DNA of 26,226 nucleotides from a virus (lineage: Duplodnaviria > Caudoviricetes). The notes below the pieces were generated by a model. That model did no database searches, was not told where the DNA came from, and worked only from the letters and a program-made list of their open reading frames with translations. Positions 1-22,095 of the stretch are shown here, one piece after another; positions within the stretch are counted from its first letter, which is position 1, and every line of letters starts with the position of its first letter. The translations under genes were made by a program, and so were the position numbers. The stretch is from positions 1 to 26,226 of IMG/VR virus record IMGVR_UViG_3300024265_000187, one strand, 5' to 3'.

Positions 1-2
1 TC

Positions 3-323
3 ATCGATGAAGCACACAGCATGTCATCGGCAGCGCAGAACTTTCTGCTCGGGCTCCTGGAGCGACTGCCGGATCACAGGGCGATCATCGCCACGACAAC
101 AGAAGACAAGCCTTTCAAGTCCGACGCCCTGTTATCCAGATGGATCAAGATCACACTCAGGCAACCGGACCCGGCCGAGGCCACGACACTGATACGAGAC
201 CTCATAGCCCAGGTAAACGGCGTTGAGGCCAGCGACAGCACCATATGCAGACTTCTGAAGGATAGGAACTTCAACATGAGGGAGGCGATTACCGACATAG
301 TCCAAATGGGGGCGAGATTTTAA
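3..323 (+). CDS. C-terminal part (5'-truncated by window edge) of a clamp-loader-clade AAA+ ATPase, DnaX gamma/tau-like
   Basis: Frame is open from base 3: IDEAHSMSSAAQNFLLGLLE (Walker B, cf. DnaX IDEVHMLS..AFNALLKTLE), IIATTT (sensor 1), LLSRW (SRC-like Arg finger), NMREA (sensor 2). Confidence 0.85.
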   Translation: MDEAHSMSSAAQNFLLGLLERLPDHRAIIATTTEDKPFKSDALLSRWIKITLRQPDPAEATTLIRDLIAQVNGVEASDSTICRLLKDRNFNMREAITDIVQMGARF

Positions 324-326
324 CGC

Positions 327-355
327 TTGACACAGTATACACGAAACCGCACAAT
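327..355 (+). promoter_or_regulatory. Sigma70-like promoter for the replication/recombination operon
   Basis: TTGACA (327-332), 17 bp spacer, CACAAT (350-355); intergenic, upstream of SD AGGAAGGA and ATG 392. Confidence 0.6.
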
Positions 356-391
356 ACCCGAAAACGCGGACAGCGCAGGAAGGATAAAACA

Positions 392-1795: not shown

Positions 1796-2202
1796 GCCAA
1801 CGCAAGTCAGTCACATTCAGAGACTCGAACATGGGGGAGTGCGACATAGTAGCGTTCGCAATCCACCTGTCGGAAGTTTTTGGAACAACGCAACGAGGGA
1901 TCGCAGCAATAGTGCGGCTAACAAAACCGTACAGCGAATGGAGGCGCAGAGTAGAATGGTGTCAACACTGTCAACGATACGTGCCCGTACAGTTCATGGA
2001 CACAACGGCGATCGACGAACACGCAGCCCGCCGAATAAAGTTCAAGGATCATCCAGACAGAGACGATCCTAGAGAAGCATGCAGAGGAAGTAACACCGAC
2101 TCCGTGTGGAACGGGGCAGTACCACAACAATGCGAGCTAGCGCCCGACGCACTCGTGAGACTCCTGTCAACCGCAGGACTAGCTGGAGGACAATGCGCAT
2201 GA
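1792..2202 (+). CDS. Hypothetical protein with CxxC (possible Zn binding)
   Basis: ATGA overlaps with both neighbours; WCQHC plus two further Cys; same codon style as the arm. Confidence 0.7.
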   Translation: MSQRKSVTFRDSNMGECDIVAFAIHLSEVFGTTQRGIAAIVRLTKPYSEWRRRVEWCQHCQRYVPVQFMDTTAIDEHAARRIKFKDHPDRDDPREACRGSNTDSVWNGAVPQQCELAPDALVRLLSTAGLAGGQCA

Positions 2203-2966
2203 AGCCAATTGGATTAGCGTTCGACATCGAAACGGCGATAGACCCGCACGCAGCACTACCAGAAGCAACGATCAAGCCCGGCAATACCAAAGACCCGGGG
2301 AAGCTGGCAATCAAACAAGACGAGGCCAACGAAGCCTTGATACGAAAAGCAGCACTCGACCCACACTTCTCGCGAGTGGTTGCAATTGGATACCTGTTAA
2401 AACCAGACAGCGACGATGACACTGAACAACACTACGTTGACGTGATCAACACCCCGGACGATTACCTGTTCGGACTGGACGGAGATGCAGCAGACCACAA
2501 AGAAGACCTGGACAAGCGAGAACTTGCACTGATCATCGACCTGTGGGCAACAATAACACGCACGATCGACACAGACAGAAGGTTCGCGACGTTCAACGGT
2601 ACAGGGTTCGATCTCAAATTCCTGTACCGCAGGTCCCTGATACTCGGACTACCGGTGCCGGAACGAGTAATGGATCGAACATACCATGTAGACGCACTGT
2701 TGGCACTGACCGAATCAGAGCCGGGAACCGGTAGAGGGATCATGTTCCAAGCACCAACACCAACACCGCGCAACCTGAGATTCTACTCCGCAACCCTGCT
2801 GAACCCGGACCCGCACGCGGGACTCGTTGACATCGACAAGTCACAAAACGCAACGGCCATAGGAATACCAGAACGAAGACAAGAGCTGGTAGACGACACG
2901 AACGCGGCAACGCTTGCAACATACCTGCTTGCCAACAAATGCGTGACAATCCTCGGCACCGCATAG
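2199..2966 (+). CDS. DnaQ/PolB-type 3'-5' exonuclease-fold protein (ExoIII motif degenerate)
   Basis: ExoI LAFDIET, ExoII TFNGTGFDLKFL; start moved to ATG 2199 (GGAGG at 2185-2189, ATGA overlap). Confidence 0.8.
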   Translation: MKPIGLAFDIETAIDPHAALPEATIKPGNTKDPGKLAIKQDEANEALIRKAALDPHFSRVVAIGYLLKPDSDDDTEQHYVDVINTPDDYLFGLDGDAADHKEDLDKRELALIIDLWATITRTIDTDRRFATFNGTGFDLKFLYRRSLILGLPVPERVMDRTYHVDALLALTESEPGTGRGIMFQAPTPTPRNLRFYSATLLNPDPHAGLVDIDKSQNATAIGIPERRQELVDDTNAATLATYLLANKCVTILGTA

Positions 2967-2990
2967 AAACCAGAAAGGAACTGATCAAAA

Positions 2991-4154
2991 ATGGAAACGA
3001 ACGAAGACACAATACCAACGGAGGCCACAGAAGCAACGGAAGCAGAATCTACACTAGTGCCATCCAACTCGATGATCGACCGGCTAATGAGAATAGCAAA
3101 CGCAGTAGCAGAGAGCGGATCGGCACTGCCAAAAGGGTGCAGAAATGCAGCGGGCGTATTCCGCAAAATGTTGACAGGCGTCGAGCTTGGACTGCCACCA
3201 ATGACATCGCTCAACGAACTGGACAGCATAAACGGAAGAGAAACGCTAAGCGCACGAATGAAGGTTGCAATAATACGCAAGCGGAAAATCGGCAAGATCG
3301 AAGTTGTAGAAACTACGGCAGAGAGTGCGACTGTAGCGGTCTCGAAAGCGTGCTGGCCTGATGACCGCCAAGAACAAATTACCTTCACGATGGACGACGC
3401 CCGAACGGCGAAGATATCGGAGAAAGACAACTGGAAACACTGGCCAAAGGCGATGCTATTGAGCAAGGCATTGTCAATCGCGTGCGCGACACACTTCCAA
3501 GAAGTCTTCGAGGGAGTTGGATACACGGCAGACGACTTGGGGGCAGAAACAGACGAGGAAGGCCGAGTCCTTGAAAGGTTAGAACCAACCACGGCAGAGA
3601 CTCCACCGTGGCGAAAAAAAGCCGAGGACGAAACGGTGGAAAAGGAACAACCACCACAAGGCAAGGCCAAGCCTACGCAGGAACCACCAGCACTGCCAAA
3701 AGCTGCACAGAAACCAGCCACATCGGACGTGCCGCCCGCTGCCGCCACCGCAGGTGAATCGAACTATCAGCCACACGACACATCACCAGGCGGAATGAAA
3801 AGGGCAGTCAAAGAAGTTGGCCTTACGGCTGACCAATGGAGGGAATCATTAGCAAACCACTTCAACGGCGCGAAGAAATTGGCAGACCTGACCTTGGTAG
3901 ACGCCGAACGATGCGCAATCTGGCTGAGACGGCTCAAGCAAATCACGCTGATGAGAGAGGACGCGGGGTACGGTGCAGCACAATGGGCGTCGGTGCTGGC
4001 CAAGCGCCAAGTGGACCATGAGCACCAACTGTCACTAGATCAGGTTCACGAAATCTGGAGTAAGCTGTTCGAGAACACGACTCCTTTTAGACGAGGCAAG
4101 CTGGGGATTACGGAAGAGAACGCAAAACCAGACGGTGCAGACACGGGAAAATAA
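2991..4154 (+). CDS. RecT-like single-strand annealing protein (phage recombinase) with C-terminal extension
   Basis: TGVELGLPPMTSLNELDSINGR, FTMDDARTA, KDNWKHWPKAML and GVGYTADDLG match the phage RecT-like pattern; Pro/Ala linker follows; SD AGAAAGGA. Confidence 0.75.
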   Translation: METNEDTIPTEATEATEAESTLVPSNSMIDRLMRIANAVAESGSALPKGCRNAAGVFRKMLTGVELGLPPMTSLNELDSINGRETLSARMKVAIIRKRKIGKIEVVETTAESATVAVSKACWPDDRQEQITFTMDDARTAKISEKDNWKHWPKAMLLSKALSIACATHFQEVFEGVGYTADDLGAETDEEGRVLERLEPTTAETPPWRKKAEDETVEKEQPPQGKAKPTQEPPALPKAAQKPATSDVPPAAATAGESNYQPHDTSPGGMKRAVKEVGLTADQWRESLANHFNGAKKLADLTLVDAERCAIWLRRLKQITLMREDAGYGAAQWASVLAKRQVDHEHQLSLDQVHEIWSKLFENTTPFRRGKLGITEENAKPDGADTGK

Positions 4155-4330
4155 AGCCCCCCAAGTGGACCACCGCACCCCACGGTGGCGCCAGATCAAT
4201 CGGGGGGATAATCGAAGACATGGTAATACGACACGGTGAGCAGTTGGGAATCAGCATACTAGGATACCCAACATCATGGTGTTTAACTCGAGGCGAGTTG
4301 GATAGACTATTGCAGGGAATGGGAATCTGA
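4145..4330 (+). other. Candidate -1 programmed frameshift site and 59-codon extension of the RecT-like protein
   Basis: In-frame G_GGA_AAA (4145-4151) directly before TAA; stem-loop 4157-4207; -1 frame open to TGA 4328-4330. Confidence 0.65.
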
Positions 4331-4344
4331 AAAGGAGAGCAACA

Positions 4345-4920
4345 ATGCCAGAAGAAGGATTCGGACCACAAGACTCAGGTGATTATAACTTTGGAGCAAC
4401 AGCACCCCCGGAAGGATTTGATCCAAACACATCAGCACCAAAGAGACCAGACGCCGGTGAACACACGATGACAATCACGACGTTCACCATGCACCCGGAC
4501 CACACGTTCAAGTGGAAAGGGGAGTCGTATGCACTTACGCAACTACGCCCAACGCTCGTTGTCACATCACCCGGCAGCAACGAAGGCAGAGAGTGCATCG
4601 ACTTTTTGCCAATGCCAACCGAAGGGAGGGAAATGGGCCTGCTTGCAAATCGATGGGCAAATCTCCTGAAGGGGTTCGGCTTCAACGTAACAAAAGACTC
4701 GCTAGTGCCGGTAGGCTTCAAGCTAACCGACCTCATAGGAAGATCAGCAAACGTCACAATTCAAGAAGAAACAGACTCCGACAACCAACCCAAGAAGTAC
4801 CGAGGCGTCGTGCAGACAGGAGTCGCATTGTTTGGATACAGCCCGGTGGACGAAGCAACGAAAGGACCGGACGCAACGCCAACGGCGGCCGAGGGCAAAC
4901 CTAAGCCCTTTGACCTGTAA
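4345..4920 (+). CDS. Probable OB-fold ssDNA-binding protein (DUF669-like)
   Basis: PDAGEHTMTIT near the N-terminus, DLIGRSANVTI, flexible tail ending PFDL; sits next to the recombinase; SD AAGGAG. Confidence 0.6.
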   Translation: MPEEGFGPQDSGDYNFGATAPPEGFDPNTSAPKRPDAGEHTMTITTFTMHPDHTFKWKGESYALTQLRPTLVVTSPGSNEGRECIDFLPMPTEGREMGLLANRWANLLKGFGFNVTKDSLVPVGFKLTDLIGRSANVTIQEETDSDNQPKKYRGVVQTGVALFGYSPVDEATKGPDATPTAAEGKPKPFDL

Positions 4921-4938
4921 CCGGCCTAGAGACGAAAC

Positions 4939-4975
4939 GGGTGGGCGACACGAACAGCATGCCAGTCGCCCACCC
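4939..4975. repeat. Perfect 11 bp inverted repeat (intergenic hairpin)
   Basis: GGGTGGGCGAC (4939-4949) / GTCGCCCACCC (4965-4975), 15 nt loop; no U-tract on +. Confidence 0.8.
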
Positions 4976-5003
4976 AACAGGCACGCGCAGAAAGGACGCC
5001 CGA

Positions 5004-7268
5004 ATGAACACGACGCTGTTCGACACAGCACAAAACGAAGTAACAACGCGACTGATACTGGACCGAATCGTATTCAACGAGAACGGACGGATCATCGCAA
5101 AGGCGCACATCCAAGCAACGTATCCACTGAAATCAGAAGCAGGAAAACCCGTAACCCACGTATCAATCCTTGGAGCAATGCCGAACGCATCGGCTGGCCA
5201 AGAGTACGAAGTAACCGGGAAACTGGAATACGATACCAAATGGCACCAATGGCAAATCAAATTCTCGACGCACAGAACAATCCTACCCAACGATGAAGAC
5301 TCCATTCTCAGATACCTGATCGACGTTGCGCGATGGGTAGGTCCGGATATAGCCGCAAAGCTGGTAAAGGCATTCGGAAACCACACGCTGACCACAATCA
5401 AAACCGATCCCGAGCACGTCGCAGAAACCATACCAGGAATAACGCTCACACGAGCGAAAGAGATGCAGTCAACGCTTGTAGAAAATGAAAAGTCAGAGCA
5501 AGCGATGATCGAGATCAACACGATGATCGGTGGAGTGCTACCGCCTTCAATAACACGAAAAGCTATCTCCACATGGGGATCGGATGCAGCGTTAAAAATA
5601 AAAGACAACCCATTCATTCTAACCAGCCTCCCGGGCGTTGGGTTCATAATGGCGGACGCCATACACCGAAGAATGAAAGGCGCGGAGGACGATCAAAATC
5701 GACACAAATCCGCAATAGTTCACGTACTACAAGAGGCAGCACAGAACGATGGACACACGGTAATAACCACCAACCAAGCAGTGTTGAAAGCAAACATCCT
5801 CACGGGCGGGCTGCGAACAGACTCCATAGCAACGGCCGAAAAAAACGGACACATCAGAACAAGCGACATGGCAAGCGACATGAGCCTAGAAGACTTGGTT
5901 GCCGCCGAAGAGTACGTTGCAGGGAAAATATCAACCATGCTGTCGGAGGAAATGCCACCGACAAGAATAGAAACGACAGACACGACACTGAACAACGAAC
6001 AACGAGCAGCATTCCACGGAATCCAAAACAGCAACGTCTTCATCCTGACAGGAGCACCGGGAACCGGGAAAACATATACGCTAGCAAGAATTGTGAAGGC
6101 GCTTAGAGACACGAACGCCTCAACAGTGCTGGTGGCACCAACCGGAAAAGCAGCAAAGCAGATGGAACTAGCACTCCAAGATACGTGCCCGACAACAGCC
6201 ACAACGATCCATTCGGCACTCGGCCCAACCATCGATGAAGACGGGAACTTCTGCTTTGATCGAGATGAACACGACCCCATCCCCGCGGACGTGATAATTG
6301 CCGACGAATTCAGCATGGTTGACGTTAGGCTCGCAAGAAGTCTACTGAAGGCCATAAGCCCGACGACGAAACTAATCATCGTAGGGGATCACTACCAGCT
6401 ACCGTCTATAGGCCCGGGCGCCGTACTCCGAGACCTGATTGCGGCCAAAGTGCCATGCCACGAACTGTCAAAAATACAACGCAACGCGGGGCTGATCGTG
6501 AAAGCATGCCACGCGATCAAGGCAGGAAAAATCGTGCAACCGGCCGAAAAACTAGATGCCGACGCTGGACAAAACTGGCGACACATCGAAACGGAAAGCA
6601 CGGCACAAACCAAGCAGGTGATAGAAGCACTGCTGCGAGACAAGCTGCCGGGAATGGGCATCGACACATTATGGAACGTACAACTGATCAGCCCAACAAA
6701 CGAGAAGGGAGAACTATCGTGCCAACAACTGAACAAGCTAGCGAAGCAAATCATCAACCCAACACCACCACCATTCCCTCGAATCCCGTTCGCACACGGA
6801 GACAAGGTAGTCCGACTAAGAAATGGCACCGCGAAAAGCGCCCGTGGCGCAGTCGCGGTGCGAGGTATCACTCGGAGAGAAACGGGAGCAACGGCAAAAG
6901 AAGACGTAAGAATAGTAAACGGTGACGTCGGAATCGTTCACGACATCGACGACAAGCACGTCATCGTAGAATTCAGATACCCGGATCGAAAAGTAGAAAT
7001 CAAAAAGGGCGACCACAAGCTGAAAATGGCATACGCAATGACCGGCCACAAGATGCAAGGAAGCGAAGTGCCGATCGTAGTCCTTCCACTGCACAAATCG
7101 TACTCGCGCATGCCGATGGTAAACCGCGAATGGTTGTACACGGCAATGAGCCGAGCGAAGCAAGCACTGATAACGGTTGGTGACCTCGGCGTAATGCGAC
7201 CGATCATTTCAAAAGTCGGAATGCAGGCGAGGCAGACGACACTAGCGTCCAAGGTGAAACTGCAATGA
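5004..7268 (+). CDS. recD2: RecD2-like SF1B DNA helicase
   Basis: N-terminal OB-like region, HhH motifs (WVGPDIA, IPGITLTRA, LPGVGFIMAD), Walker A GAPGTGKT, APTGKAA, DEFSMVD, VGDHYQLPSIGPG, AYAMTGHKMQGSE, LYTAMSRAK; start at ATG 5004 after AGAAAGGA. Confidence 0.92.
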   Translation: MNTTLFDTAQNEVTTRLILDRIVFNENGRIIAKAHIQATYPLKSEAGKPVTHVSILGAMPNASAGQEYEVTGKLEYDTKWHQWQIKFSTHRTILPNDEDSILRYLIDVARWVGPDIAAKLVKAFGNHTLTTIKTDPEHVAETIPGITLTRAKEMQSTLVENEKSEQAMIEINTMIGGVLPPSITRKAISTWGSDAALKIKDNPFILTSLPGVGFIMADAIHRRMKGAEDDQNRHKSAIVHVLQEAAQNDGHTVITTNQAVLKANILTGGLRTDSIATAEKNGHIRTSDMASDMSLEDLVAAEEYVAGKISTMLSEEMPPTRIETTDTTLNNEQRAAFHGIQNSNVFILTGAPGTGKTYTLARIVKALRDTNASTVLVAPTGKAAKQMELALQDTCPTTATTIHSALGPTIDEDGNFCFDRDEHDPIPADVIIADEFSMVDVRLARSLLKAISPTTKLIIVGDHYQLPSIGPGAVLRDLIAAKVPCHELSKIQRNAGLIVKACHAIKAGKIVQPAEKLDADAGQNWRHIETESTAQTKQVIEALLRDKLPGMGIDTLWNVQLISPTNEKGELSCQQLNKLAKQIINPTPPPFPRIPFAHGDKVVRLRNGTAKSARGAVAVRGITRRETGATAKEDVRIVNGDVGIVHDIDDKHVIVEFRYPDRKVEIKKGDHKLKMAYAMTGHKMQGSEVPIVVLPLHKSYSRMPMVNREWLYTAMSRAKQALITVGDLGVMRPIISKVGMQARQTTLASKVKLQ

Positions 7269-7531
7269 TAACACCTATAGTCGTCGGAGCGGAAAACGAA
7301 ATCATGCAACCGGTAGAAATGCTGCCGAACGAATTGAGAAGCGCATTACAAGACATCCATGATGCACCAAGAATAATTTGCGATCGACACAAGTCGCAAA
7401 GTTTCAATTGGGATTTTGTAGCAAGAAGAATCGGCGAACACATCGCGTGGATCGAGGAGCAACGGTGCAATGACGTAAAGAAATGCGCCTTACTCCTACA
7501 GGCCAAAATTGTTAGGGCAATGAACGAATGA
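7265..7531 (+). CDS. Hypothetical protein
   Basis: ATGA overlaps on both sides; fills the gap in the operon. Confidence 0.7.
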   Translation: MITPIVVGAENEIMQPVEMLPNELRSALQDIHDAPRIICDRHKSQSFNWDFVARRIGEHIAWIEEQRCNDVKKCALLLQAKIVRAMNE

Positions 7532-8070
7532 TAATCGCAGTAGATTCAAGAGAACAAAAACCGTACAAGTTCAAAGGGCTGTTTCCGGAAAGCGGTGACC
7601 TAGTAATTATGGAAACGGGAATACCAGAAGGAGACTACTTAACGATCGGGGGATCATGGGTCGATAATGGAGAGCGCAGCCTTTTGGCTCAAGACGAAAC
7701 GGTTGTCCACGCACGATCGTTCAAGAAAGAAGAATGCGCACTGATAGAACGCAAGACGTTGGCAGATTTGTACGGAACCATCGGGCATGGTCGTGACAGA
7801 TTTGTTAGAGAACTCGAACGAATGAAGGTGTACGGGTACGCAGCAATCCTGATCGAAGCGCAAATGTCACAGATAGCAGAGCCCAACGTACACCTGAAAC
7901 ACCCAACACAAATGAGTCCCAAGTCGGTAATCGCATCGCTCATTGCATGGTCGCAAAGATATGGAATCCACATTGTAATGTGCCCTGGGCGGGCGAATGC
8001 AGAGCGGATTTGCTTTAGGATACTAGAACGATGGCACCAGGACTCGATACCACTAAATCGCAAAAAATAA
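7528..8070 (+). CDS. ERCC4/XPF-domain structure-specific nuclease
   Basis: IIAVDSREQ, GDY and IERKTLADL (GDxnERKx3D signature). Confidence 0.9.
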   Translation: MIIAVDSREQKPYKFKGLFPESGDLVIMETGIPEGDYLTIGGSWVDNGERSLLAQDETVVHARSFKKEECALIERKTLADLYGTIGHGRDRFVRELERMKVYGYAAILIEAQMSQIAEPNVHLKHPTQMSPKSVIASLIAWSQRYGIHIVMCPGRANAERICFRILERWHQDSIPLNRKK

Positions 8071-11577: not shown

Positions 11578-11813
11578 CAGATTATCACCTTGCCAACAAG
11601 TTCAAGCCCAGGAAGCAACGCTTGATCACGACGCACGGCGCCGTTGGATAGAATATCACTAGCACGCTTGAGAACAAAAAGGTCTGTGTGAAAACGGATA
11701 GCAACAAACTCGCGAACCTCCTTCCTGGTAGCAGGCTTTGAAGGATGGCCGAAAACACGGCCGATGGCCAATCGTTGATCATCGTCTAATTCGAGATTCG
11801 TTATAACCTTCAT
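11577..11813 (-). CDS. Hypothetical protein (MKVITNLELDDD...; alternative start 11894)
   Basis: Coupled to the HTH gene; start position uncertain. Confidence 0.6.
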   Translation of the reverse strand: MKVITNLELDDDQRLAIGRVFGHPSKPATRKEVREFVAIRFHTDLFVLKRASDILSNGAVRRDQALLPGLELVGKVII

Positions 11814-11911
11814 GCGGCAATCGTCTTCATAGTTGTGTCGGTGGCCGGTCGGGCTTCCGGCGTCATGTTTTTTCAGCCAACAGACTGCATTCATTCCTTC
11901 TGATGGCCGAT

Positions 11912-12235
11912 GGAGCTGATGCTACTAGCGATACCAACAACGGTGGGGAACATCCACCTTGCTCACGTTTGTCATAATGACCAAAACCAAAAGGCGCTCT
12001 ATCCATCCCTAACGCATCTCCGACACTAACGGAGACAGGACTTGAACCTGCGACCTTCGGATTATGAATCCGACGCGCTGCCAACTGCGCTACTCCGCAC
12101 TAATGCCCGGACCGCTGGCAAAACAAATCTTCGGCCACTTTCTAGTAAGGCCGGGTTGGCGTCTCATTGCGCCCACCACCGATCCGGGCTCAACGAGGGT
12201 TGGTAGAAACCCGCTCGCGTTACTCAATCAGCTCC
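11912..12235 (-). ncRNA. Candidate structured ncRNA (~325 nt) with embedded tRNA
   Basis: Nested long-range helices 12235-12227/11920-11912 (9 bp), 12218-12215/11931-11928 and 12205-12199/11938-11932, plus a three-way junction 12189-12105; own promoter. Confidence 0.5.
12027..12099 (-). tRNA. tRNA-Met(CAT), initiator-like variant; CCA not encoded
   Basis: TGCGGAG-TA-GCGC-AGTTGGCA-GCGC-G-TCGGA-TTCATAA-TCCGA-AGGTC-GCAGG-TTCAAGT-CCTGT-CTCCGTT-A folds into a full 73 nt cloverleaf. Confidence 0.92.
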
Positions 12236-12253
12236 TAGCTCCCAACACGAAAC

Positions 12254-13004: not shown

Positions 13005-13886
13005 TCACACAGCACGAACGAAGTCTCCTGTAGAATTGTCGTGTACGTTGATATCTCCGTCCAGCTTCGATCGGTTCTGTGCGCCACCGTAGATGTTAAC
13101 TTGCCCATCCAGTCCGTCAACGAGCCATGAGGACGTGTCAGGATCCCAAACGTTGAGTACACCAGTACGACTGGCACGGTGTCCATGTCCATTCGGATCA
13201 GGAGTAAACAACGGAATTGGCGCATGGCCAGCAGCAGCAGGCAAGGCAAACCCCCCGGGCGTAGCGCTGTTCCCGTTACCGCTGAAGTCTGGCTCAGGGT
13301 CGTCGGCCCCCAGGATTGGCAGATAAAAGTTTGGACCCACATTGTCAAGATGTGAGGTCCAGCGATGCAACAGAATTTGGCCACCGTCACCAAGTCTCTG
13401 GTTATTCCAAATCTTGGCCTCTGCGATTCGGCCATTGAACCGGAACGATTCCTGGCCATCCTGAAACTGTCCGATAATCAGGTCAGTACTAGTACTATCG
13501 ATGCCCCCAGAATGGCTCGCGGTGTAATCATTCGTCGTCTGTGCAACAGGATCCCAAACCTGCATGTCCAGTGTAGTTCCATCAAATCGGCATGTAACGT
13601 GATACCATTGGTTTAAGGTTGGCACAGAACCAACCTGCAAATGTACAGGCGTCGCAGTGTCAAATATGGTAAACAGAAATCCGAAGAACCCGCCACCACC
13701 CGTAGTGTTCGCGAGCCGAAACACATAGGATTGCCACTTACTCAAAATATGCTGTACGTCGCCCGATGTTGTTCCGGTCGGATACACCCAACACATCATA
13801 GAAAAGTCTTGGGCAGATACGTCGAGGATCGAATCATCCAAGACGCGCAACCGCTCACTGTTACTGTCTATCCATTCTCGTGCCAT
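13005..13886 (-). CDS. LamG/concanavalin A-like jelly-roll protein (virion adhesin candidate)
   Basis: DFSMMCWVYP, NQWYHVTCRFDGT, LIIGQ and FNGRIAEAKIWN are Laminin_G_3 hallmarks. Confidence 0.85.
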   Translation of the reverse strand: MAREWIDSNSERLRVLDDSILDVSAQDFSMMCWVYPTGTTSGDVQHILSKWQSYVFRLANTTGGGGFFGFLFTIFDTATPVHLQVGSVPTLNQWYHVTCRFDGTTLDMQVWDPVAQTTNDYTASHSGGIDSTSTDLIIGQFQDGQESFRFNGRIAEAKIWNNQRLGDGGQILLHRWTSHLDNVGPNFYLPILGADDPEPDFSGNGNSATPGGFALPAAAGHAPIPLFTPDPNGHGHRASRTGVLNVWDPDTSSWLVDGLDGQVNIYGGAQNRSKLDGDINVHDNSTGDFVRAV

Positions 13887-14377
13887 CAGACGTCGGAGTA
13901 TTGAAACTTCAATCCAAACAAGAGCGCGGCCGCAGCCATCGTGTCGGTAACACTGTCACGGAAAATTTCTGCATTTACAAGATCGCCAGCTTCATAATCA
14001 CCGGCAGTAAGAGTAATGCTGTGCGATTGAAGTAAAAACGCTGTACCGCTCTTCGTCTCAGTTCCCGTTTCCGTCGTTCTGGTTGCAGCACCACCAACAT
14101 CTTCGCCATCTTCGAGGGAAAGCAGGCTCCAATCCCAAGTCAAAGTTCCAGTAGTTGCGTCAGCAGTCCACTTGGGAATCAGCACTGGGCTACCAACGTA
14201 GTTATCAGGCACGAAGAAAGACAACCGGGCTCCGTCTTTTGTTCCGGAGTTAGTGAAAACGAGAATCTGCGGATCAATGACGGCGCCGGAATCTGAAATG
14301 CTGTACGGTTGCCAGTAAACTTTTCCAGAAGAATCAGGAATAGCGTTTCCAAGGATAGGGATTGATCTAGTTGCCAT
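13886..14377 (-). CDS. Putative virion protein (beta-sandwich)
   Basis: Beta-rich (FFVPDNY, AGDLVNAEIFRD, LFGLKFQY); TGATG coupling. Confidence 0.75.
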   Translation of the reverse strand: MATRSIPILGNAIPDSSGKVYWQPYSISDSGAVIDPQILVFTNSGTKDGARLSFFVPDNYVGSPVLIPKWTADATTGTLTWDWSLLSLEDGEDVGGAATRTTETGTETKSGTAFLLQSHSITLTAGDYEAGDLVNAEIFRDSVTDTMAAAALLFGLKFQYSDV

Positions 14378-14646
14378 CAGATGCCACCCCTTGTCACTTT
14401 GGTCTCAAGGAACCCGGTGATGATAGCGGTTTTGGCCGCATCACTGAATACGCCAGGAGCCACCCTCTCTATGGCATCACGAAATCGTGACGCAATGGCA
14501 TCCCACTCGTCTTCGCATGATTGAATGGCGACTGCCGACTGACTCTTGTCCCACGTAACAGACATTCGAGAAGCCTTCGACGGACCACCTCCATCACTTA
14601 CGCGGCGCTCAATCGCACGCAGCTCTTCGCTTATCATTTGAACCAT
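14377..14646 (-). CDS. Hypothetical protein
   Basis: 1 bp stop/start overlaps on both sides. Confidence 0.7.
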   Translation of the reverse strand: MVQMISEELRAIERRVSDGGGPSKASRMSVTWDKSQSAVAIQSCEDEWDAIASRFRDAIERVAPGVFSDAAKTAIITGFLETKVTRGGI

Positions 14647-15431
14647 TATTTTTCCACCAAATACGCATCGAAACCAGCAGCAACACGAACATTGATAGTA
14701 TCCGTCTGAACCTGTATTTTCACGATGAGTGGACCAGAAAAACCCTTCGGAACCATGTACTCATGATTCAATGGAGAGATGTCGGTAAAATACCTAACCT
14801 CTTTAGCGATGAATGCGGAATCAGGTTGTCCTGCGTTCTCTTTGACAAAAAGAAACCAATCTACTTTGACGGACACGGCGCCAGCAACCCTCAGGGCAGC
14901 AGCAGTAACATGCCGAATCCTAAATTCTTGTGTCGATGGAACACCATAAATTGCCATCATCGTTTGACCTTGTCCGGCAGCAATCATGGCAGTAATCGTT
15001 GCATCTATTTGCGCAGTTGCCGTGATAGTTCCTGCGCTAACGCCAAGAGAGCCAAAGGTGCGCCCGATCATCCGATGAATAATTACATAAGAGTTTGCAG
15101 TCGGAACGCTCGATGTACCATTGAGCACTACAACCTCGCCGACTTCTGGAGAGTCCCAATCGATTAATCCAAAAACCTCGACGGTTCGTATTCCAGGCCC
15201 TACCGGATCACCGTCATCGTCGGCACTGGATGAAGCAATATCATGCATTCTTGCCTGGGTAGGCGCAACCCAAACCTTCGTAGACGTAATGCCGTCGGCG
15301 CCATCCCATACGTCTGTATCTATGTTGGCGTCACAATCAGGCGCGCAACCGAACTTATTCAAAGTCAGGTAGCCAGTAGCACGACCAAGCGATGCCTCAA
15401 GCCCAAAATCTTTTGCCCCCAAAAAGGTCAT
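14646..15431 (-). CDS. Putative virion structural protein (beta-rich)
   Basis: LNKFG...DTDVWD, VEVFGL, EVVVLNGT and GQTMMAIYGVP resemble uncharacterised phage structural proteins; start at TAATG overlap 15431. Confidence 0.75.
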   Translation of the reverse strand: MTFLGAKDFGLEASLGRATGYLTLNKFGCAPDCDANIDTDVWDGADGITSTKVWVAPTQARMHDIASSSADDDGDPVGPGIRTVEVFGLIDWDSPEVGEVVVLNGTSSVPTANSYVIIHRMIGRTFGSLGVSAGTITATAQIDATITAMIAAGQGQTMMAIYGVPSTQEFRIRHVTAAALRVAGAVSVKVDWFLFVKENAGQPDSAFIAKEVRYFTDISPLNHEYMVPKGFSGPLIVKIQVQTDTINVRVAAGFDAYLVEK

Positions 15432-16333
15432 TACCAGATTTCCCAACTAGTATTATTGCTCAAAATTTCTATAGCTTCCTTGTCCGGCGAATCAACCAAA
15501 GTCACGGTGGACGCGCCTTCGATCAACTCGGAGCCAAACGGATCGACAGTTACATCGTTTCCCCCGGTTCCAACATTCTTGATCTTGAATCTCCGACCCT
15601 CGTTGCCCGTCGCCGTTGGTAGATTGACTGTAATAGCAACCAGGGTTGTGTCACACCTAACAGCATGATTGGACTTCGTCAACGTAACATCACCGGTAAC
15701 CGTAGTGATCTTCAAAACAGCCTCACCACCCGGAGCGGCATCGGTATTCATCCACACGCGCGTCTTGGGAGGATCAGCGGGCGGAGACGTTCCAACATGA
15801 ACATCGTCGTAGAAATCCGTAACGTCCGCACCATTGGTCTTGACCGATTGGCCATCCGTTCCATCGGCAATTGGAAGCGCAAACTCATTATGGATAATCA
15901 TCGCACCGTCGACATTGTGATCGACACGAAAAATCTCTACACCAGTAGTAAGATCACGCAAGAAAAACGCATCACCACCAGCGGAATTCTTGAACCCTAT
16001 CCGCCAACGATCAGGGAATCCCCCGGCGTCAAGAAAATTGATACCGGCTTCAGCATCAATAGTACGATGAAGACAGATCAAGGTAAAATCGGCGTTAATC
16101 GTAAGGGCACCGGTCAAAGTGCCACCAACAAGAGGAAGAAAAAGCGCAAACGTCGCACGCGCCTCATCTAGCGCCTCTCTCACGTTCTTGGGAAGAGAAG
16201 CCCAATCACCGGGAGTCGTTGGAATGTAAGGAATGCGAACAGCGCGAGCCCAATGGTCAAGATTGTCGACTATTAACCGTGGGGCGCCATCGAGCCCCAA
16301 CGGAGAAAGATTGTCTTGGATCAACAACGGCAT
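15431..16333 (-). CDS. Short tail fibre/spike-like protein
   Basis: NVREALDE and FLPLVGGTLTGAL fibre motifs, VGTSPP linker, C-terminal AITVNLPTA..GRRFKIK..IEG..W domain common at fibre tips; start at TAATG overlap 16333. Confidence 0.75.
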   Translation of the reverse strand: MPLLIQDNLSPLGLDGAPRLIVDNLDHWARAVRIPYIPTTPGDWASLPKNVREALDEARATFALFLPLVGGTLTGALTINADFTLICLHRTIDAEAGINFLDAGGFPDRWRIGFKNSAGGDAFFLRDLTTGVEIFRVDHNVDGAMIIHNEFALPIADGTDGQSVKTNGADVTDFYDDVHVGTSPPADPPKTRVWMNTDAAPGGEAVLKITTVTGDVTLTKSNHAVRCDTTLVAITVNLPTATGNEGRRFKIKNVGTGGNDVTVDPFGSELIEGASTVTLVDSPDKEAIEILSNNTSWEIW

Positions 16334-16704
16334 TAAATCTGATATCCAACCTCTACGCCCCAAGCAACGTCGTCAGTACCAGCACGGACAAGCAGAAGCT
16401 TGTCACCCGTACGGAAAAACCACGGAGACGGATCAGATCGTTCATCCGCGGGGATAACCATGTTCATGTCAGAGCCAACACCGCGATCGTTAGCCTTATA
16501 AAGATCGACGTCGAACTCTTCTCCCTCTACGGAGTCTAGCGAAACCTGCAAATCAGCATTGGTGTTCGAGCCCTGCAACAATCGGAAATGTACACGAATG
16601 TACACCAGCTTAAAGGCGGCGCTACCCTCGGGTGGAGAAAACAAAACGGACATGTCACCACTGCCTTCTTCGAAAAATTGAGACGTGGATTGTTCAATCG
16701 CCAT
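16333..16704 (-). CDS. Putative virion protein
   Basis: Beta-rich, 123 aa, tightly packed in the operon. Confidence 0.7.
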   Translation of the reverse strand: MAIEQSTSQFFEEGSGDMSVLFSPPEGSAAFKLVYIRVHFRLLQGSNTNADLQVSLDSVEGEEFDVDLYKANDRGVGSDMNMVIPADERSDPSPWFFRTGDKLLLVRAGTDDVAWGVEVGYQI

Positions 16705-16706
16705 AA

Positions 16707-17198
16707 CTATGCATCCGGGTCATTGAAAATACGAACATTGTCACCAATCGGAAGGGCCCCATCCAACCGCAACAGAAACGGAATTACCTGTACCTGAACA
16801 CTACCATCATCGACAAGCGACTCATAAGTTGACAAACCACCACTCGGGAAAGCGGTGCCATCAGTACCGGTTATAACATTGACAAACTGAATAATTTTGG
16901 GAGTAGAGCCTTCAGTGAAACGAAAAAACATGTCGTAGTCAGGCAGGTCGCCAGGAGTACCGGGAATCTCAAGGGGACCCCACGGAGTAAGATCAAAAAG
17001 CTCAAGAGAAGAAGCCAGCTCAGTAAGTCCAATTTCGCCCGAAACGCGATGAACTCCAGGAATAGGAACGATGTCGTTACCTGAAAAACTAATGGTCCTG
17101 AAAATCTTCCAACGAACAAAGATGATTCCGGGAACATCTACACGCTTGTTTGTGTTTTCAAGAATGTAGTAGGCGCCACGAGTGGTACGAACGATCAT
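16707..17198 (-). CDS. Hypothetical virion protein, possibly a divergent tail-tube-fold protein (163 aa)
   Basis: TGATG coupling at 17198; position after the terminator-like gene; alternating beta pattern (VSGEIGL, MFFRF, KIIQFVNV). The fold call is inference. Confidence 0.5.
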   Translation of the reverse strand: MIVRTTRGAYYILENTNKRVDVPGIIFVRWKIFRTISFSGNDIVPIPGVHRVSGEIGLTELASSLELFDLTPWGPLEIPGTPGDLPDYDMFFRFTEGSTPKIIQFVNVITGTDGTAFPSGGLSTYESLVDDGSVQVQVIPFLLRLDGALPIGDNVRIFNDPDA

Positions 17199-17659
17199 CA
17201 GTTTCCACCACGTGCGACCATAACAGTGAAGTTGCGAATAGAATCGGCGACCACAATGTTTCCATGCGAGGCATCTGTACCAAACGTAATCGACCACTCT
17301 CCGTTTTCCAGCCCAGCCATCCCCTTGGTCTTGGTGAACGCATCTATATTATCGTCCACCTGCGCCATTTTTGAAAGAATCTCGACAGTAGCGCCATCGG
17401 CAGTGCGAACCTCAGTGACAATGCTGATCTTTACTTGCACACTCCATTGCTTAGCCGTGTCCGCTCGCCCCGACGCAGTAGCACCCAACAACTGCAAGGC
17501 GACATAAGCCGTTTGATGAGATCCAAGAAGATTCTCGCCCTCGACAACCTCACGAATTTTAACATTGCTATCGGCGCCGGAAGAACCAACCAACTCCTTC
17601 ATATGACTGAACAACAAGCTGAAGACGCCCGTAATAGTACCCAGAAATCCATCAGCCAT
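17198..17659 (-). CDS. Probable tail terminator/completion protein (lambda gpU / SPP1 gp17-like)
   Basis: Size, position after the adaptor and helix-beta-beta-helix-beta pattern; SD GAGG. Confidence 0.5.
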   Translation of the reverse strand: MADGFLGTITGVFSLLFSHMKELVGSSGADSNVKIREVVEGENLLGSHQTAYVALQLLGATASGRADTAKQWSVQVKISIVTEVRTADGATVEILSKMAQVDDNIDAFTKTKGMAGLENGEWSITFGTDASHGNIVVADSIRNFTVMVARGGN

Positions 17660-17672
17660 AACAATTCAATCC

Positions 17673-18905
17673 TCAAAACAGGCGACGATAGCGCTTGGCA
17701 ATAACTTCAACTTCAGGCAAGATTTCAGTAGGATTCTTGCTGACGGCTGCACCCGAAGCAACAGCAACCCCACGCTGAGAAGAAAATCTAACACCAACAG
17801 TTCTTCGTTGTTGAAACTCGTAAGACGCCTGCAACACATTGGCGTGCCGAAGATCACCAGGAACAGTATGCGGATCATCCAAAAGGCGATGATGCAAAAT
17901 GGTTAGCTTGGGAGTTTGCCCCGATGTTCCTTCGGACGACGTAATGATAACACTGGACTGCGTCTCTTCGTCGTTCAATCGAACACCAACACTAAGCTGA
18001 CCAGTATTGACGGCAGCCAAAATCAACGTTTCCATGGCAACCAATCCGGTCGTATTACTCAGCGCAAACGTGTATTCTACCGGCCCGGGATCTACGCTCG
18101 TGGTCGCACCAAGCTGTAACGCTGAACCAGCAGTATTCATATCAGCCCAAAGATTCACAAGATTCGTCGCGCTGTTTCTCGCGGCATCCACCGACAAAAC
18201 GTAAACTCTCAAGTTGGTCCCCGACGCCGCTGTAGCAAAAAGAGAAACTTCGAACGTAGAAATATTCCAAGTGGGCATAAACACATCTTGAAGCGTAAAA
18301 CGTAAAAACGCTCGAAGAATGGTGTCAAAAACGGTTCTAGATGCAAGAATCGTTGTGTCCGTCAACCCAGTCAACTGATAATCAATGCCTTCGTCATGTA
18401 CAATGTTGTAGTCCAACGTATCAGTAACCGAATTCAGGGTAAGGGTGGAATCTTCTAGCGCAATCTCATCATCTGTCTTGTATCCGCCGGTGTACGTCAC
18501 CTGGATTTGGCCAGCATTATCCTGTTCGTTGCCTAGCCAATTACGGCCGAGCCGACGAAGAACACCATCTGACCCTGGGCGCCCGCCTGCGCCCGCTTCC
18601 AATATGTAGCCAGTTCCCTCGACCAGTTCGGTGTAATTGTCGGAGTCATCGAAGTCTCTGGTTGCAGACTCGCGAACGATGTGCACCTGTACGATCGGAG
18701 AAGAACGAAGCCGGATGGTTCGTTCACCTCCAGAAAGAGTTTCGACAAGAGCGTGGCGGCGGAGCAGCGGGCGTCCAGCAAGGTTTTCAATGGTTCCTGC
18801 GGTCGAGCGAACGATTTCTGTGATTATAGCGTCATCGGTCGAATCAACAATTCCCATGCGGCTTTTGACTTCGGCCACAGTGGCAAATCCCCTGTCGAAG
18901 AACAT
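17673..18905 (-). CDS. Head-tail connector/adaptor (HK97 gp6 / SPP1 gp15-like) with ~205 aa inserted domain
   Basis: FATVAEVKSRMGI..DDAII..IENLAGRPL, SPIVQV, IQVTYTGGY ... VPGDLRHA, LPEVEVIAKRYRR. Confidence 0.8.
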   Translation of the reverse strand: MFFDRGFATVAEVKSRMGIVDSTDDAIITEIVRSTAGTIENLAGRPLLRRHALVETLSGGERTIRLRSSPIVQVHIVRESATRDFDDSDNYTELVEGTGYILEAGAGGRPGSDGVLRRLGRNWLGNEQDNAGQIQVTYTGGYKTDDEIALEDSTLTLNSVTDTLDYNIVHDEGIDYQLTGLTDTTILASRTVFDTILRAFLRFTLQDVFMPTWNISTFEVSLFATAASGTNLRVYVLSVDAARNSATNLVNLWADMNTAGSALQLGATTSVDPGPVEYTFALSNTTGLVAMETLILAAVNTGQLSVGVRLNDEETQSSVIITSSEGTSGQTPKLTILHHRLLDDPHTVPGDLRHANVLQASYEFQQRRTVGVRFSSQRGVAVASGAAVSKNPTEILPEVEVIAKRYRRLF

Positions 18906-18922
18906 AATGCGCTCCGCCTATC

Positions 18923-19486
18923 TCAATTGTCTTCGTATTCCAGGTAGTACATAGGACCTGTGCCACCGGTCATGTCCGCGTTGTTGCTTGTGATCGTGAT
19001 GACTATTTTGTCACCCTTGTCCAGCAACAGGTCTGCGCTAGTGCTCGTCAAAGTGTGGGCGGTCAGGGTGTCATCGGTAAGCCCTGTTTCGGTTTCGCTT
19101 CCACTTGCCAACAGCGCGTTTCCATCACCGGTAATTCCGACTACGACAGTGCCACCAGCCGACTCCGGTGCGTCGGTATACCTGCGCGTGACACCAGTGA
19201 TCTTCATCTTGCGCACAGCATAGGTAATATAAGTGTTGGCAGAATTCTCCACCAAATCATCCAATCGGGCCTCCATAGCGTTTTGGCCGAATCCAAACTT
19301 TTCGGTAGCACTGTTGTGTAGAACCTCTGGTAGCGTATCGACATCAGATCGCAAATGAATAGACGAGTTCTGTCTGTTCGTTGTACTCATCGCGCCCGTT
19401 CCACCCGAAATGGCTGGAGGATTTGCTTCGTTTCCGACTTGCAACACGCCCGTAACCTTTTGGTCACCACTGACTGTACTGGCCAT
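18923..19486 (-). CDS. Putative virion (head decoration/spike) protein
   Basis: Gly/Thr-rich; beta-sandwich C-terminus (LDKGDKIVITIT); SD AGGAG. Confidence 0.7.
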   Translation of the reverse strand: MASTVSGDQKVTGVLQVGNEANPPAISGGTGAMSTTNRQNSSIHLRSDVDTLPEVLHNSATEKFGFGQNAMEARLDDLVENSANTYITYAVRKMKITGVTRRYTDAPESAGGTVVVGITGDGNALLASGSETETGLTDDTLTAHTLTSTSADLLLDKGDKIVITITSNNADMTGGTGPMYYLEYEDN

Positions 19487-19495
19487 ATCAGACTC

Positions 19496-19729
19496 CTAGC
19501 TAAAGATCTTCTCTTCGATTCGCTCGACTCGCCCCTTGATGTTGCTGACGTCGGCCTTAATCTCGATGCACGCATCATGCACATCGTCGAGCTTAGTTTT
19601 CTTGCTACTACCGTTGTCGTATTTCAACCACACGAGCCAAGCAAAGCAAGCGGCACCGACCAGAAGGCCGACGTACCCGAATTGGCTGAGGTCCATTTTC
19701 TCAAACGGAGCCTGTAGCAATAACAGCAT
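19496..19729 (-). CDS. Small membrane protein, single TM plus coiled coil (holin-like candidate)
   Basis: SD AAGGAG before ATG 19729; FGYVGLLVGAACFAWLVWL; IKADVSNIKGRVERIEEKI. Confidence 0.65.
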   Translation of the reverse strand: MLLLLQAPFEKMDLSQFGYVGLLVGAACFAWLVWLKYDNGSSKKTKLDDVHDACIEIKADVSNIKGRVERIEEKIFS

Positions 19730-20546
19730 TTTCAGACTCCTTATTGTCGTCCGACACCGGGAAAAGTGAGGGGTCGTGTTCATGTCCCCACGCAATACGA
19801 CTATCGAAATCGAACACTCCGCAGTGCTTTACGTCTACGGCACGCGTTGCTCCGTAACTGACCCCAAGCTCATGTAACAATCGCGAGAAGAACCAGTCTT
19901 CCGGTTCGGTTCGAGCTACGCGCGAGATACCGGGTTCGGTTTGTTCACCTGTCGTAAGCGTACGGATTTCATCGTTGATCGTGAAGAGGTATTCGTGCAC
20001 GGGCGCATGACGCAAGTCCATCACCAGAAGCCCACTGTTAACTAGAAGTGTCGCACAATCACCTTCCCATCCTTCCAATCGCCCAATGAGATCGGGACCG
20101 GTAAACGTCGTCGGCAACTTCATGGTTTCTTGCAGCGTAAGTCTCCGCACATCACCCTTGATCGCAGCATTGGGATCAGACATGCAAACACCCGTGCTGG
20201 TCAGCCCGCGACCATCCTTGATCGGTACAACGGCAGAGAGCACATCGAGATCGTGTTTCTCCATCTCCGCAATCATAATATTCAACCAATTGGGTTGAAC
20301 CGGAACGATGTCGGCGTGCAACAGGCAGAAGTGAGTAAGTGGCACCGCACCGCTCTCTTTCAAATTGAGCGCCGTGCAGAAGATGGAGTTGAAGTTGTGA
20401 GCCAACAGTGAACAGCAATTCATGTGGACCACGCAGTCAGACAGCTTGGGCGCCTTCAAGATCGCCTGCACCGTACCAATGCCGATCTGCCCACTATGCG
20501 TAGGAACTCCGATGAACGTGAAGGATTTGTTTGTGTTCGATGCCAT
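19701..20546 (-). CDS. GT-A fold (GT2-like) glycosyltransferase
   Basis: FIGVPT, THFCLLHADI (DxD position reads HAD), NSGLLVMD, EDWFFSR, VKHCG. Confidence 0.75.
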   Translation of the reverse strand: MASNTNKSFTFIGVPTHSGQIGIGTVQAILKAPKLSDCVVHMNCCSLLAHNFNSIFCTALNLKESGAVPLTHFCLLHADIVPVQPNWLNIMIAEMEKHDLDVLSAVVPIKDGRGLTSTGVCMSDPNAAIKGDVRRLTLQETMKLPTTFTGPDLIGRLEGWEGDCATLLVNSGLLVMDLRHAPVHEYLFTINDEIRTLTTGEQTEPGISRVARTEPEDWFFSRLLHELGVSYGATRAVDVKHCGVFDFDSRIAWGHEHDPSLFPVSDDNKESENAVIATGSV

Positions 20547-20551
20547 GGGAA

Positions 20552-20887
20552 CTAGATTCCTTTCTTCTTTTTATTCTTGGGCTTGCTGTCCGTCTCTTCA
20601 ACTGCCGGTTCAGGCTCTTGGCCGTCGTCCTGCGGAGGCTCTTGGCCGTCGTCCTCAATTGCCGCGGGAAGCGGACCCCAACCATTCGCTTTCGCAACCT
20701 CTTCCCAATTGGCAGGGTGAACTTTAGCGCCCGCTAATTCCGCCTTTTGCCGAGTTGTATTAATCAACCCGGCAACGTAACAGTCGGCCTTCGGATCCCA
20801 CACGCAGAACCTTGCCGGATTTTTCGGCATAGGTACAACAATGCAACCGTTAGGCAACTTCTTGAAATTTCCGCCCGCTATTCCCAT
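20552..20887 (-). CDS. Hypothetical protein with acidic repeat and Lys-rich tail
   Basis: SD AGAAAGGA before ATG 20887; DDGQEP twice; KPKNKKKK. Confidence 0.7.
   Translation of the reverse strand: MGIAGGNFKKLPNGCIVVPMPKNPARFCVWDPKADCYVAGLINTTRQKAELAGAKVHPANWEEVAKANGWGPLPAAIEDDGQEPPQDDGQEPEPAVEETDSKPKNKKKKGI
20612..20655. repeat. 20 bp direct repeat, 24 bp period, in frame
   Basis: AGGCTCTTGGCCGTCGTCCT at 20612-20631 and 20636-20655. Confidence 0.9.
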
Positions 20888-21575
20888 AGCAATCTTCCTT
20901 TCTAACAATAGCCTCTTCGCAATCAGTTCCTTCGGACAACCCAACTATATGCTCACCTAAAAGGGGGTGGGTTGTCCAGCATCCACCAGAATTGATAGAC
21001 GCCCAATAACCATTTTCTCCAAAGCACGCAACAAGAGCATCTCTAACACTATCCTGATACGCATCGTGGCCAGCGAGGATCCCGGTTCGGCCCTTCCACG
21101 CGTTGATGTCGCTTATGACGGCTTCGGTCGTATGGTCTCCGTCGATAAAAACAAAGTCAGCACCACGAATAACCGGCACCGCACGAACGCTGTCCATACA
21201 CAGGATTTCAATGTGATCTTCCAAGTCGAAAGCCTTGATATTCTCCCCAAACACATCCAGCAGCGTGCGATTGGCCGCCAGCATCTCCTTGATCTGTAAG
21301 TTGTATTCATCTCCACCGTTGGTGCCATCCGCGAAGCTTATCTCAAACGTGTCAACGGCGTAAAGCTCGAAGTTGCAGCCCATACGATCCAGGAGTTGCT
21401 TACAAAGATGGATGATGCTTGTGCCCTTCCAGACACCAACTTCTACGAGTACAGGAGCGGTGACAACAGAAGTGCTTCCAGTGCCAACGTCGCATTTCTT
21501 TTCGGCCTCCGAAAAGTGATCGGCAACCCAATCATAAACAGGCCGAAAATTGAACCAACCTCTAAGATCGATCAT
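20850..21575 (-). CDS. Class I SAM-dependent methyltransferase (Methyltransf_24-like)
   Basis: LVEVGVWKGTS, YAVDTF, FVFIDGDH, GILAGHD; start ATG 21575 after AAGAAGG. Confidence 0.85.
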   Translation of the reverse strand: MIDLRGWFNFRPVYDWVADHFSEAEKKCDVGTGSTSVVTAPVLVEVGVWKGTSIIHLCKQLLDRMGCNFELYAVDTFEISFADGTNGGDEYNLQIKEMLAANRTLLDVFGENIKAFDLEDHIEILCMDSVRAVPVIRGADFVFIDGDHTTEAVISDINAWKGRTGILAGHDAYQDSVRDALVACFGENGYWASINSGGCWTTHPLLGEHIVGLSEGTDCEEAIVRKEDCYGNSGRKFQEVA

Positions 21576-21600
21576 GGGAACCTTCTTAATGGGAACGAAG

Positions 21601-21640
21601 AAAAAAGGTGGATGGTGGCGTTCCCCAACCACCACCCACC
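21601..21640 (-). terminator. Intrinsic terminator after capsid and cement genes
   Basis: GGTGGGTGGTGG-N10-CCACCATCCACC-TTTTTT (12 bp stem, U6). Confidence 0.85.
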
Positions 21641-21660
21641 CCGAACACAAACCACCACCA

Positions 21661-22095
21661 CTAAGTTGCGTCGACCTCCGCCGTGCTCGCGTCAGACGAG
21701 TCTTCGGGGCCAAACATGATAAGCGTTGCACCGTAGAGCGCCGAGTTGGCATTCAAGTTGTCAATCGGCTTGAAATACCGTTTCAGCGCAGTCAGGTCGA
21801 AGTAAGCAAACGACGAAGTGTTGTCGTCGGCATTCACGAACGTCAGTAGCCGAGGATTGATGTCAGTCACCACAGGGGCAGGAACCGTTGCGAAATTGGC
21901 AGCGGCCTCATCCGATTGCTGAATATCGAAATTCAGAGTGACGTCATCGACAATACCCTTACTAATCACAAGAATGGCCTCGTTCCATCCTCGCGTGTCG
22001 ATCGCAGTGTTGTTCCCATCTGTCGAAGTCAGAAAATCCGTGGGCGGAATTATCTGCTGAACGCTAATGCGTCGATTGATGAGTCGTCCCATCAT
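21661..22095 (-). CDS. Capsid cement/decoration protein (jelly-roll, BPP-1 Bbp16-like)
   Basis: Directly after the capsid gene and before the terminator; AIDTRG, IQQSD and KRY motifs; SD AAGGAG. Confidence 0.65.
   Translation of the reverse strand: MMGRLINRRISVQQIIPPTDFLTSTDGNNTAIDTRGWNEAILVISKGIVDDVTLNFDIQQSDEAAANFATVPAPVVTDINPRLLTFVNADDNTSSFAYFDLTALKRYFKPIDNLNANSALYGATLIMFGPEDSSDASTAEVDAT

Follow-up and report, generated by a model that had tools for sequence, protein, structure and literature searches.

Lone tRNAs with a CAU anticodon are common cargo of temperate phages. In the phiLM21-like prophages, according to the accessible part of PMC12429752, a single tRNA is present in 15 of 25, and in 14 of those it is a Met or fMet tRNA (CAU). 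A published hypothesis, set out in the available portion of PMC10264068, holds that phage tRNAs replace host tRNAs cut by anticodon nucleases; for phages whose hosts have an fMet-cutting VapC, though, the same portion reports a tendency to avoid tRNA-fMet.

Phage tRNAs are also found beside or within structured RNAs. Many members of the GOLLD class exceed 800 nt, their 3′ region is universally conserved and tRNAs are sometimes located in a linker (PMC12286853, accessible part), while theta ribozymes are structured RNAs that adjoin a phage tRNA, often tRNA-Met, and cleave within 5 nt of its 3′ end (PMC10879173, available text). The P4 CI and P1/P7 C4 RNAs are described as RNase P substrates in the accessible sections of PMC5499578.

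The window, which is the whole stretch of 26,226 nucleotides analysed here, is part of a tailed-phage type genome with an HK97-fold capsid (viral record IMGVR_UViG_3300024265_000187). On its minus strand lies a CAU tRNA in a non-coding gap that extends ~350 nt from a putative promoter to the next gene. An initial annotation had described this element as a candidate novel structured RNA that wraps the tRNA inside itself. On balance we think that the phage probably carries here an optional tRNA cassette, whose structured precursor is unusually long.

Genomic setting and the tRNA gene

In family searches of the window ORFs, portal, HK97-type capsid and head-tail adaptor genes were recognised on the minus strand, while the plus strand encodes RecT-like, RecD2, ERCC4 and primase proteins; these structural and replication modules converge on the tRNA cassette. 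A longer assembly (L002/G001; 36 kb, 45% complete) shows three differences from the window in 20,562 bases compared. The sole pointer to the host is a member of the primase cluster that carries the label Planctomycetota and is ~50% identical in the N-terminal region. Over positions 1-8000, which hold the replication module, the coding strand has a strong A-over-T skew (0.28-0.43) that fades in the structural module. A large insertion in the 410-aa head-tail adaptor is common to four family members. None of the ORFs scanned at 13005-22095 and in contig L227 could be recognised as a gene for tail tube, sheath or tape measure.

All features of the cassette and its neighbours described below lie on the minus strand. 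The last gene of the structural module is a 196-aa ORF (12985-12395) with a lipoprotein-like N-terminus, as judged by eye; it has no family match, and a homologue search returned only the ORF itself. It is followed by a terminator-like hairpin at 12329-12304, found by a terminator scan, with 10 bp, 8 of them G-C, and a T-rich tail, which would act as an insulator between the late operon and the cassette. A putative sigma-70-like promoter, TTGACA-17 nt-TACCCT, lies at 12282-12254; it was recognised by eye and by a strict scan, and a general promoter scan did not list it. If used, it would start transcription near 12247 and give a leader of ~148 nt.

Downstream of the cassette, an SD-like AGAAGGA (11901-11895) stands 4 nt before a 5-codon ORF at 11890 and directly before the ATG at 11894, which opens an orphan ORF of 105 aa (11894-11577). 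An 18-codon ORF from 11866 has a stop that overlaps the ATG at 11813, and the orphan protein, for which homologue searches found no relative, more probably starts there (78 aa) than at 11894. The stop of the orphan ORF is overlapped by the start of a Cro/C1-type HTH-like protein (11577-11227), which has no Pfam match but has ESM Atlas hits of 0.91-0.93 (TM about 0.6) to HTH_3/HTH_31 clusters. The initial annotation had placed the element between a promoter and the next SD, at the head of an HTH operon. The promoter-like site, the non-coding gap and the HTH-like gene are all present, but the SD abuts the ATG of the 105-codon ORF with 0 nt of spacing, and the HTH gene is the second ORF after the cassette rather than the first.

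The tRNA itself (12099-12027) is real. It is called by ARAGORN and matches Rfam RF00005 at 65.8 bits, against a gathering threshold of 29; it has the anticodon CAU and encodes no CCA at its 3′ end. In the Rfam alignment its informative positions are U1xU72, G2:U71, C3:G70, A73, G29:C41, G30:C40, A31:U39 and C11:G24. The 1:72 mismatch of bacterial initiator tRNAs is present as U1xU72, and in the place of the third of the three G:C pairs of initiators (29:41, 30:40 and 31:39) there is A31:U39. Bacterial initiator tRNAs also have a purine11:pyrimidine24 pair, where this tRNA has C11:G24. In the accessible part of PMC5389676 an initiator is defined by the 1:72 mismatch, by 3:70 and by an essential G30:C40, and natural variants in the three-pair feature exist. 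By these features the tRNA reads as initiator-like, with the essential middle pair intact; A31:U39 and C11:G24 are departures from the usual pattern and count against this reading, and the CAU tRNA may alternatively be an elongator Met or a lysidine-modified Ile tRNA. Near-identical anticodon arms occur in three unrelated viral contigs, where the flanks are unrelated.

Over its first bases (12026-12013) the trailer repeats, in degenerate form, the 5′ start of the tRNA, and this repeat contains a variable base at 12019. Here the window allele differs from that of L002 and of a contig from run X1, two sequences that may share one source. With the window allele the trailer is able to compete against the acceptor stem, and the predicted probability of the cloverleaf is 0.001; with the allele of the other assemblies it would rise to 0.22, which favours the cassette reading.

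Folding of the leader, wrap and trailer

All the helices named in the initial annotation are complementary when checked against the sequence, and the AGUA segments of its internal loop are found on both strands, at 12224-12221 and 11926-11923. In the folding-energy comparison that it proposed, the 324-nt stretch outdoes its shuffles (z -3.33, 0/100), and still does when a short linker stands in for the tRNA (z -2.82, 1/100 shuffles). The two flanks behave differently, however. The 5′ flank beats its shuffles (z -2.65, 3/200) and the 3′ flank does not (z -0.55, 60/200), so the folding signal comes from the leader.

Within the leader, a predicted three-way junction of 85 nt (12189-12105) consists of a 10-bp stem closing two hairpins, at 12173-12158 and 12153-12132. 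Its z is -3.92 (0/200 shuffles), for a stretch that was picked after the fold was seen. In an ensemble with the cloverleaf enforced, which also gives the values quoted below for the closing stem and for hairpin 11958-11942, the stem has a probability of 0.89-0.99 and its hairpins 0.99, so that the junction claimed earlier is favoured in folding. Its 3′ boundary is 5 nt ahead of the 5′ end of the tRNA. This concentration of the folding signal in the leader and not in the trailer, together with the closure of the junction just before the tRNA, would suit an arrangement of two products from one promoter, in which RNase P frees the ~148-nt leader, with its junction, as a stable small RNA and the tRNA is a mere neighbour. 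The T4 tRNA region likewise yields two small RNAs of unknown role, as the available part of PMC3014915 describes. We nevertheless judge this arrangement unlikely for the present locus: no search returned a homologue of the leader, and 9 of 262 segments of the phage's own genome fold as well as it does.

In the predicted wrap the outer part is favoured and the inner part is not. Both an inverted-repeat search and the fold ensemble give a closing stem of 9 bp between 12235-12227 and 11920-11912, with a probability of 0.96-0.97; weaker extensions (0.69, 0.53) reach 12245, and stem and extension together would start within 2 nt of the predicted +1. Inside this stem, the region 12226-12196 is predicted to fold in competing ways, namely as GCGA/UCGC, as a local GGGUU/AACCC hairpin or as an irregular stem with 12010-11992. 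The last of these, formed by 12212-12196, is favoured (0.73), against 0.19 for GCGA/UCGC, 0.02 for GGGUU/AACCC and 0.0004 for UACCAAC/GUUGGUA. The complete nested model has a probability of 4e-7 and lies 9 kcal/mol above the best fold. Since ViennaRNA gives no score to non-canonical AGUA loops, the inner nested part is disfavoured rather than ruled out. Of the nested order first proposed, then, the closing stem is favoured and the inner helices are disfavoured; the switch that was suggested between UACCAAC/GUUGGUA and GGGUU/AACCC finds no support in the ensemble, where both forms are rare. The trailer (12026-11921) contains besides the variable site a hairpin at 11958-11942, weakly terminator-like in the terminator scan, with a probability of 0.89-0.98.

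The same predictions bear on the regulatory role that had been put forward, in which the RNA is a processing-gated leader or switch: excision or cleavage of the tRNA would refold the trailer and set translation of the orphan and HTH genes, so that host tRNases or RNase P are sensed. The cassette does lie between a promoter-like site and the HTH gene, and the SD comes no more than 11 nt after the closing stem, in contact with its weak outer extension (0.53). Yet opening the SD costs 6.6 kcal/mol in the uncut transcript and just as much once either cut is made (with the other allele, 6.6 against 6.05; on shorter transcripts, 5.9-6.3 against 5.4-6.9), so that removal of the leader or of the tRNA does not make it cheaper. 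In the ensemble the switch helix is almost never formed, the SD has no spacing from the first ATG of its ORF, a relative of the phage has the HTH gene without any leader, and the inverted repeats include no conspicuous antisense target pair of the P4 or P1 kind. We therefore regard gating of this kind as very unlikely.

Distribution among relatives and other CAU-tRNA loci

Searches with two motifs, a family-specific one from the primase and one from the head-tail adaptor, found few relatives of the phage. One of them is L101, where the gene order (structural genes, a lipoprotein-like gene, a hairpin with a T-run in the position equivalent to that of the window, a TTGAC promoter and the HTH gene) is that of the window without the tRNA. 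Its HTH protein is 35% identical to that of the window, and the ATG of its HTH gene is at the predicted +1 of the promoter, with no tRNA and no spacer RNA between; L094 has the same sequence over the promoter, a site similar to that of the window. From the position of this start codon (L101:9240-9275) the repressor-like gene may be leaderless, as is lambda cI. A second relative, G003/L257, is covered from the structural module through the replication genes and has no tRNA. In a third, G002, a CAU tRNA is found inside the structural operon, at a site different from that of the window cassette. Because it is absent from L101 and G003/L257 and elsewhere in G002, the cassette is optional and occupies different sites.

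L101 encodes a tyrosine integrase and is a temperate member of the family; upstream of the integrase gene, L101:8605-8650 resembles by eye the 3′ half of a tRNA and is a candidate attachment core. A temperate relative of this kind, with the unfolded trailer and a wrap much of which is within the range of chance, would accord with the view that the tRNA of the window is an attachment site or a captured host copy flanked by chance folding. This we consider very improbable, since the tRNA is complete, a genome set of 185,579 species contains no exact match to 30 nt of its sequence, no integrase is present in G001 (36 kb, 45% complete) and the leader folds better than shuffles.

The G002 cassette (L225:1344-1705) has a promoter-like TTGACG-17 nt-TAGCCT, a hairpin-rich leader of 119 nt with a z of -2.0 to -2.9, and predicted pairing of its ends; Rfam finds only the tRNA in it. 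Two 11-nt repeats are present as well, one an exact direct repeat that includes the TTGACG and has its copies 329 nt apart, the other a repeat of D-loop sequence that immediately follows the tRNA. Judged by eye, this cassette and that of the window have motifs in common and in the same order: GCGA/UCGC, a GGGnn/nnCCC hairpin with an ACC loop and a GUnGGCG/CGCCnAC hairpin.

It is these two tRNA-bearing members that raise the question of whether all of the ~350-nt transcript forms a single structured RNA of an undescribed kind, housing the initiator tRNA as a module in a layout common with G002, much as GOLLD does at more than twice the size, and shielding or storing the tRNA in its wrapped form until release. 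Both have a TTGAC-17-TA..T promoter, a leader of more than 100 nt and pairing between 5′ end and trailer, and the motifs noted above and the z that persists in the window element without its tRNA point the same way. Other comparisons do not. Alignments of the flanks to those of G002 are at the level of shuffles (p 0.26-0.82 in 12 tests); and covariance models of the two leaders do not detect each other and find nothing below E 0.17 in the loci collected. A pattern built from the shared hairpin and the tRNA start matched 27 viral loci, none of them a new homologue. Moreover, the G002 element has a z of only -1.32, and ranks 50 of 75 in cross-flank pairing. The single-RNA explanation is possible but doubtful. 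Covariation across homologues would be the mark of a conserved RNA family; the searches found no homologue, and a two-sequence consensus fold with G002 did not recover even the cloverleaf. We are just as hesitant about its wider form, an undescribed class of phage RNA of ~330-350 nt in which an initiator tRNA lies between a folded leader and a trailer, closed by a stem from +1, and which would move between sites within one phage family, as in the window phage and G002, and store the tRNA or shield it from host tRNases until release. If the wrapped RNA were real, the question why tRNAs are enclosed in phage RNAs such as GOLLD would gain a minimal model, one small enough for direct tests of anticodon-nuclease protection and RNase P-gated release.

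Homology searches of the flanks had a uniform outcome. Rfam, both at the gathering threshold and up to E 10 around the site, gave only the tRNA, here and at the loci of the relatives, which agrees with the initial view that the element outside the tRNA belongs to no known Rfam family. When the element or its flanks were compared by blastn with GenBank phages, with plasmids and with E. coli genomes, only the tRNA part matched or the matches had an E of at least 0.09, and the same held for the G002 leader. The nhmmer search that had been proposed found the locus itself but no other homologue of either flank among the fetched loci. No flank homologue was present among the matches listed by scans of viral sequences, scans of the genome set gave 0 matches, and none was seen in a metagenome scan of 16 loci, made up of the present one, 12 that are relatives by their primase and 3 unmatched ones, most of which are too short to span the site. 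In the IMG/VR structured-RNA survey PMC10690425, the part of the supplements searched, large files aside, has no entry for the two record numbers. The accessible portions of that survey, of PMC2864571 and of preprint 10.64898/2026.09.22.753630 show nothing that matches, and no description of such an RNA was met in a literature search that lay largely outside subscription journals.

How unusual the wrap is can be judged from a control set of 119 viral loci matching the CAU-tRNA pattern, which may themselves contain terminators or other RNAs. A perfect inverted repeat of at least 9 bp across the flanks is found at 17 of 86 distinct loci, and at 15 of 84 others when the present locus and one incomplete row are removed; most of these are A+T-rich and some have partial tRNAs. 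The window locus ranks 33 of 75 in expected pairing between 150-nt flanks, and 12 of 75 loci have a 5′-flank z of -2.6 or below. Folding programs tend to wrap the flanks of tRNAs in any case, and the wrap is unremarkable here, with the pairing rank, the flank repeat and the leader z all within the control range. To be within that range does not mean to be without function, however, since the controls may hold such RNAs. As a separate observation, a hairpin with GAC, a GCC stem and a GAGAG or GAAAG loop recurs just 5′ of phage CAU tRNAs, at L225:1467-1494 and directly upstream of the tRNAs in L203 and L214, with a close match between G002 and L203; GAAAG/GAGAG hairpins are found in 5 of 75 leaders, against 1.2 expected.

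The reading that we prefer, an optional cassette with a long precursor, draws on several of these results: the tRNA is the sole Rfam match, initiator features are present, CAU tRNAs are frequent phage cargo, the distribution is that of an accessory element and the folding of the flanks is ordinary. RNase P cleavage, 3′ trimming and CCA addition are the established route of tRNA processing. Here a predicted promoter of its own would give a ~350-nt precursor with a folded 148-nt leader and paired ends; host RNase P would cut at 12099, and 3′ trimming and CCA addition would finish a tRNA that could top up or replace the host initiator tRNA in infection. The closing stem and junction would be folding or stability aids of the precursor, not a separate functional RNA, and the small genes downstream would be co-transcribed passengers.

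Some features fit this reading less well. Strict promoter-like sites are present at 11 of 71 loci, the present one included, and four of the 11 have leaders of at most 6 nt, compared with which the leader of the window is long. Among the same 11, predicted pairing of the trailer with the first 30 nt is greatest at the window locus, with 13.6 expected pairs, and G002 is third with 6.2, by a measure that was chosen late and applied to a small sample. That a compact phage keeps ~280 non-coding bases and an 85-nt junction also suggests a function beyond processing.

Comparison with described systems

Several described RNAs were considered as identities for the element and rejected. GOLLD and ROOL gave no Rfam match up to E 10, the gap is ~350 nt and the z of the 3′ flank is -0.55. 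What the locus has in common with GOLLD is that of a phage RNA near tRNAs; it differs in its size, in the lack of an Rfam match and in its unfolded 3′ part. For theta or HDV-like ribozymes, a relaxed descriptor of our own, not that of the authors, found 0 nested double-pseudoknot cores at the tRNA's 3′ end, in agreement with the initial annotation; 4 relaxed cores elsewhere, against 3.6 in shuffles and with 0 strict ones, mark an HDV-like fold in the leader as chance. Y RNAs (YrlA/YrlB) have no Rfam match here, and a Ro60 (TROVE) gene is present in 0 of the 3 partial records G001-G003.

The P4 CI and P1/P7 C4 RNAs act by antisense, pairing with targets in the same leader. The window element resembles them as a promoter-proximal structured RNA upstream of small regulatory genes, for which processing of the RNase P type is plausible, whereas they are hairpin-like substrates and not tRNAs, and the window element has a full tRNA. 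It has no match to the Rfam c4 family, and no evident target pairing among the inverted repeats, and was not assigned to this group.

The small RNAs RNAC and RNAD of T4 similarly come from a phage tRNA region and have no known role, as described in the accessible part of PMC3014915, but theirs is a multi-tRNA cluster, and the window element outside the tRNA matches no GenBank phage. If the locus does produce a long precursor, it would add the small point that some phage initiator tRNAs are made with leaders that are long and folded, here in a phage family that has received little study and has one relative labelled Planctomycetota. The lone Met or fMet (CAU) tRNAs of phiLM21-like prophages, as the available text of PMC12429752 presents them, are likewise single and optional, present in some members and absent from others; unlike these, the window locus has a ~148-nt leader with a predicted three-way junction and paired ends.
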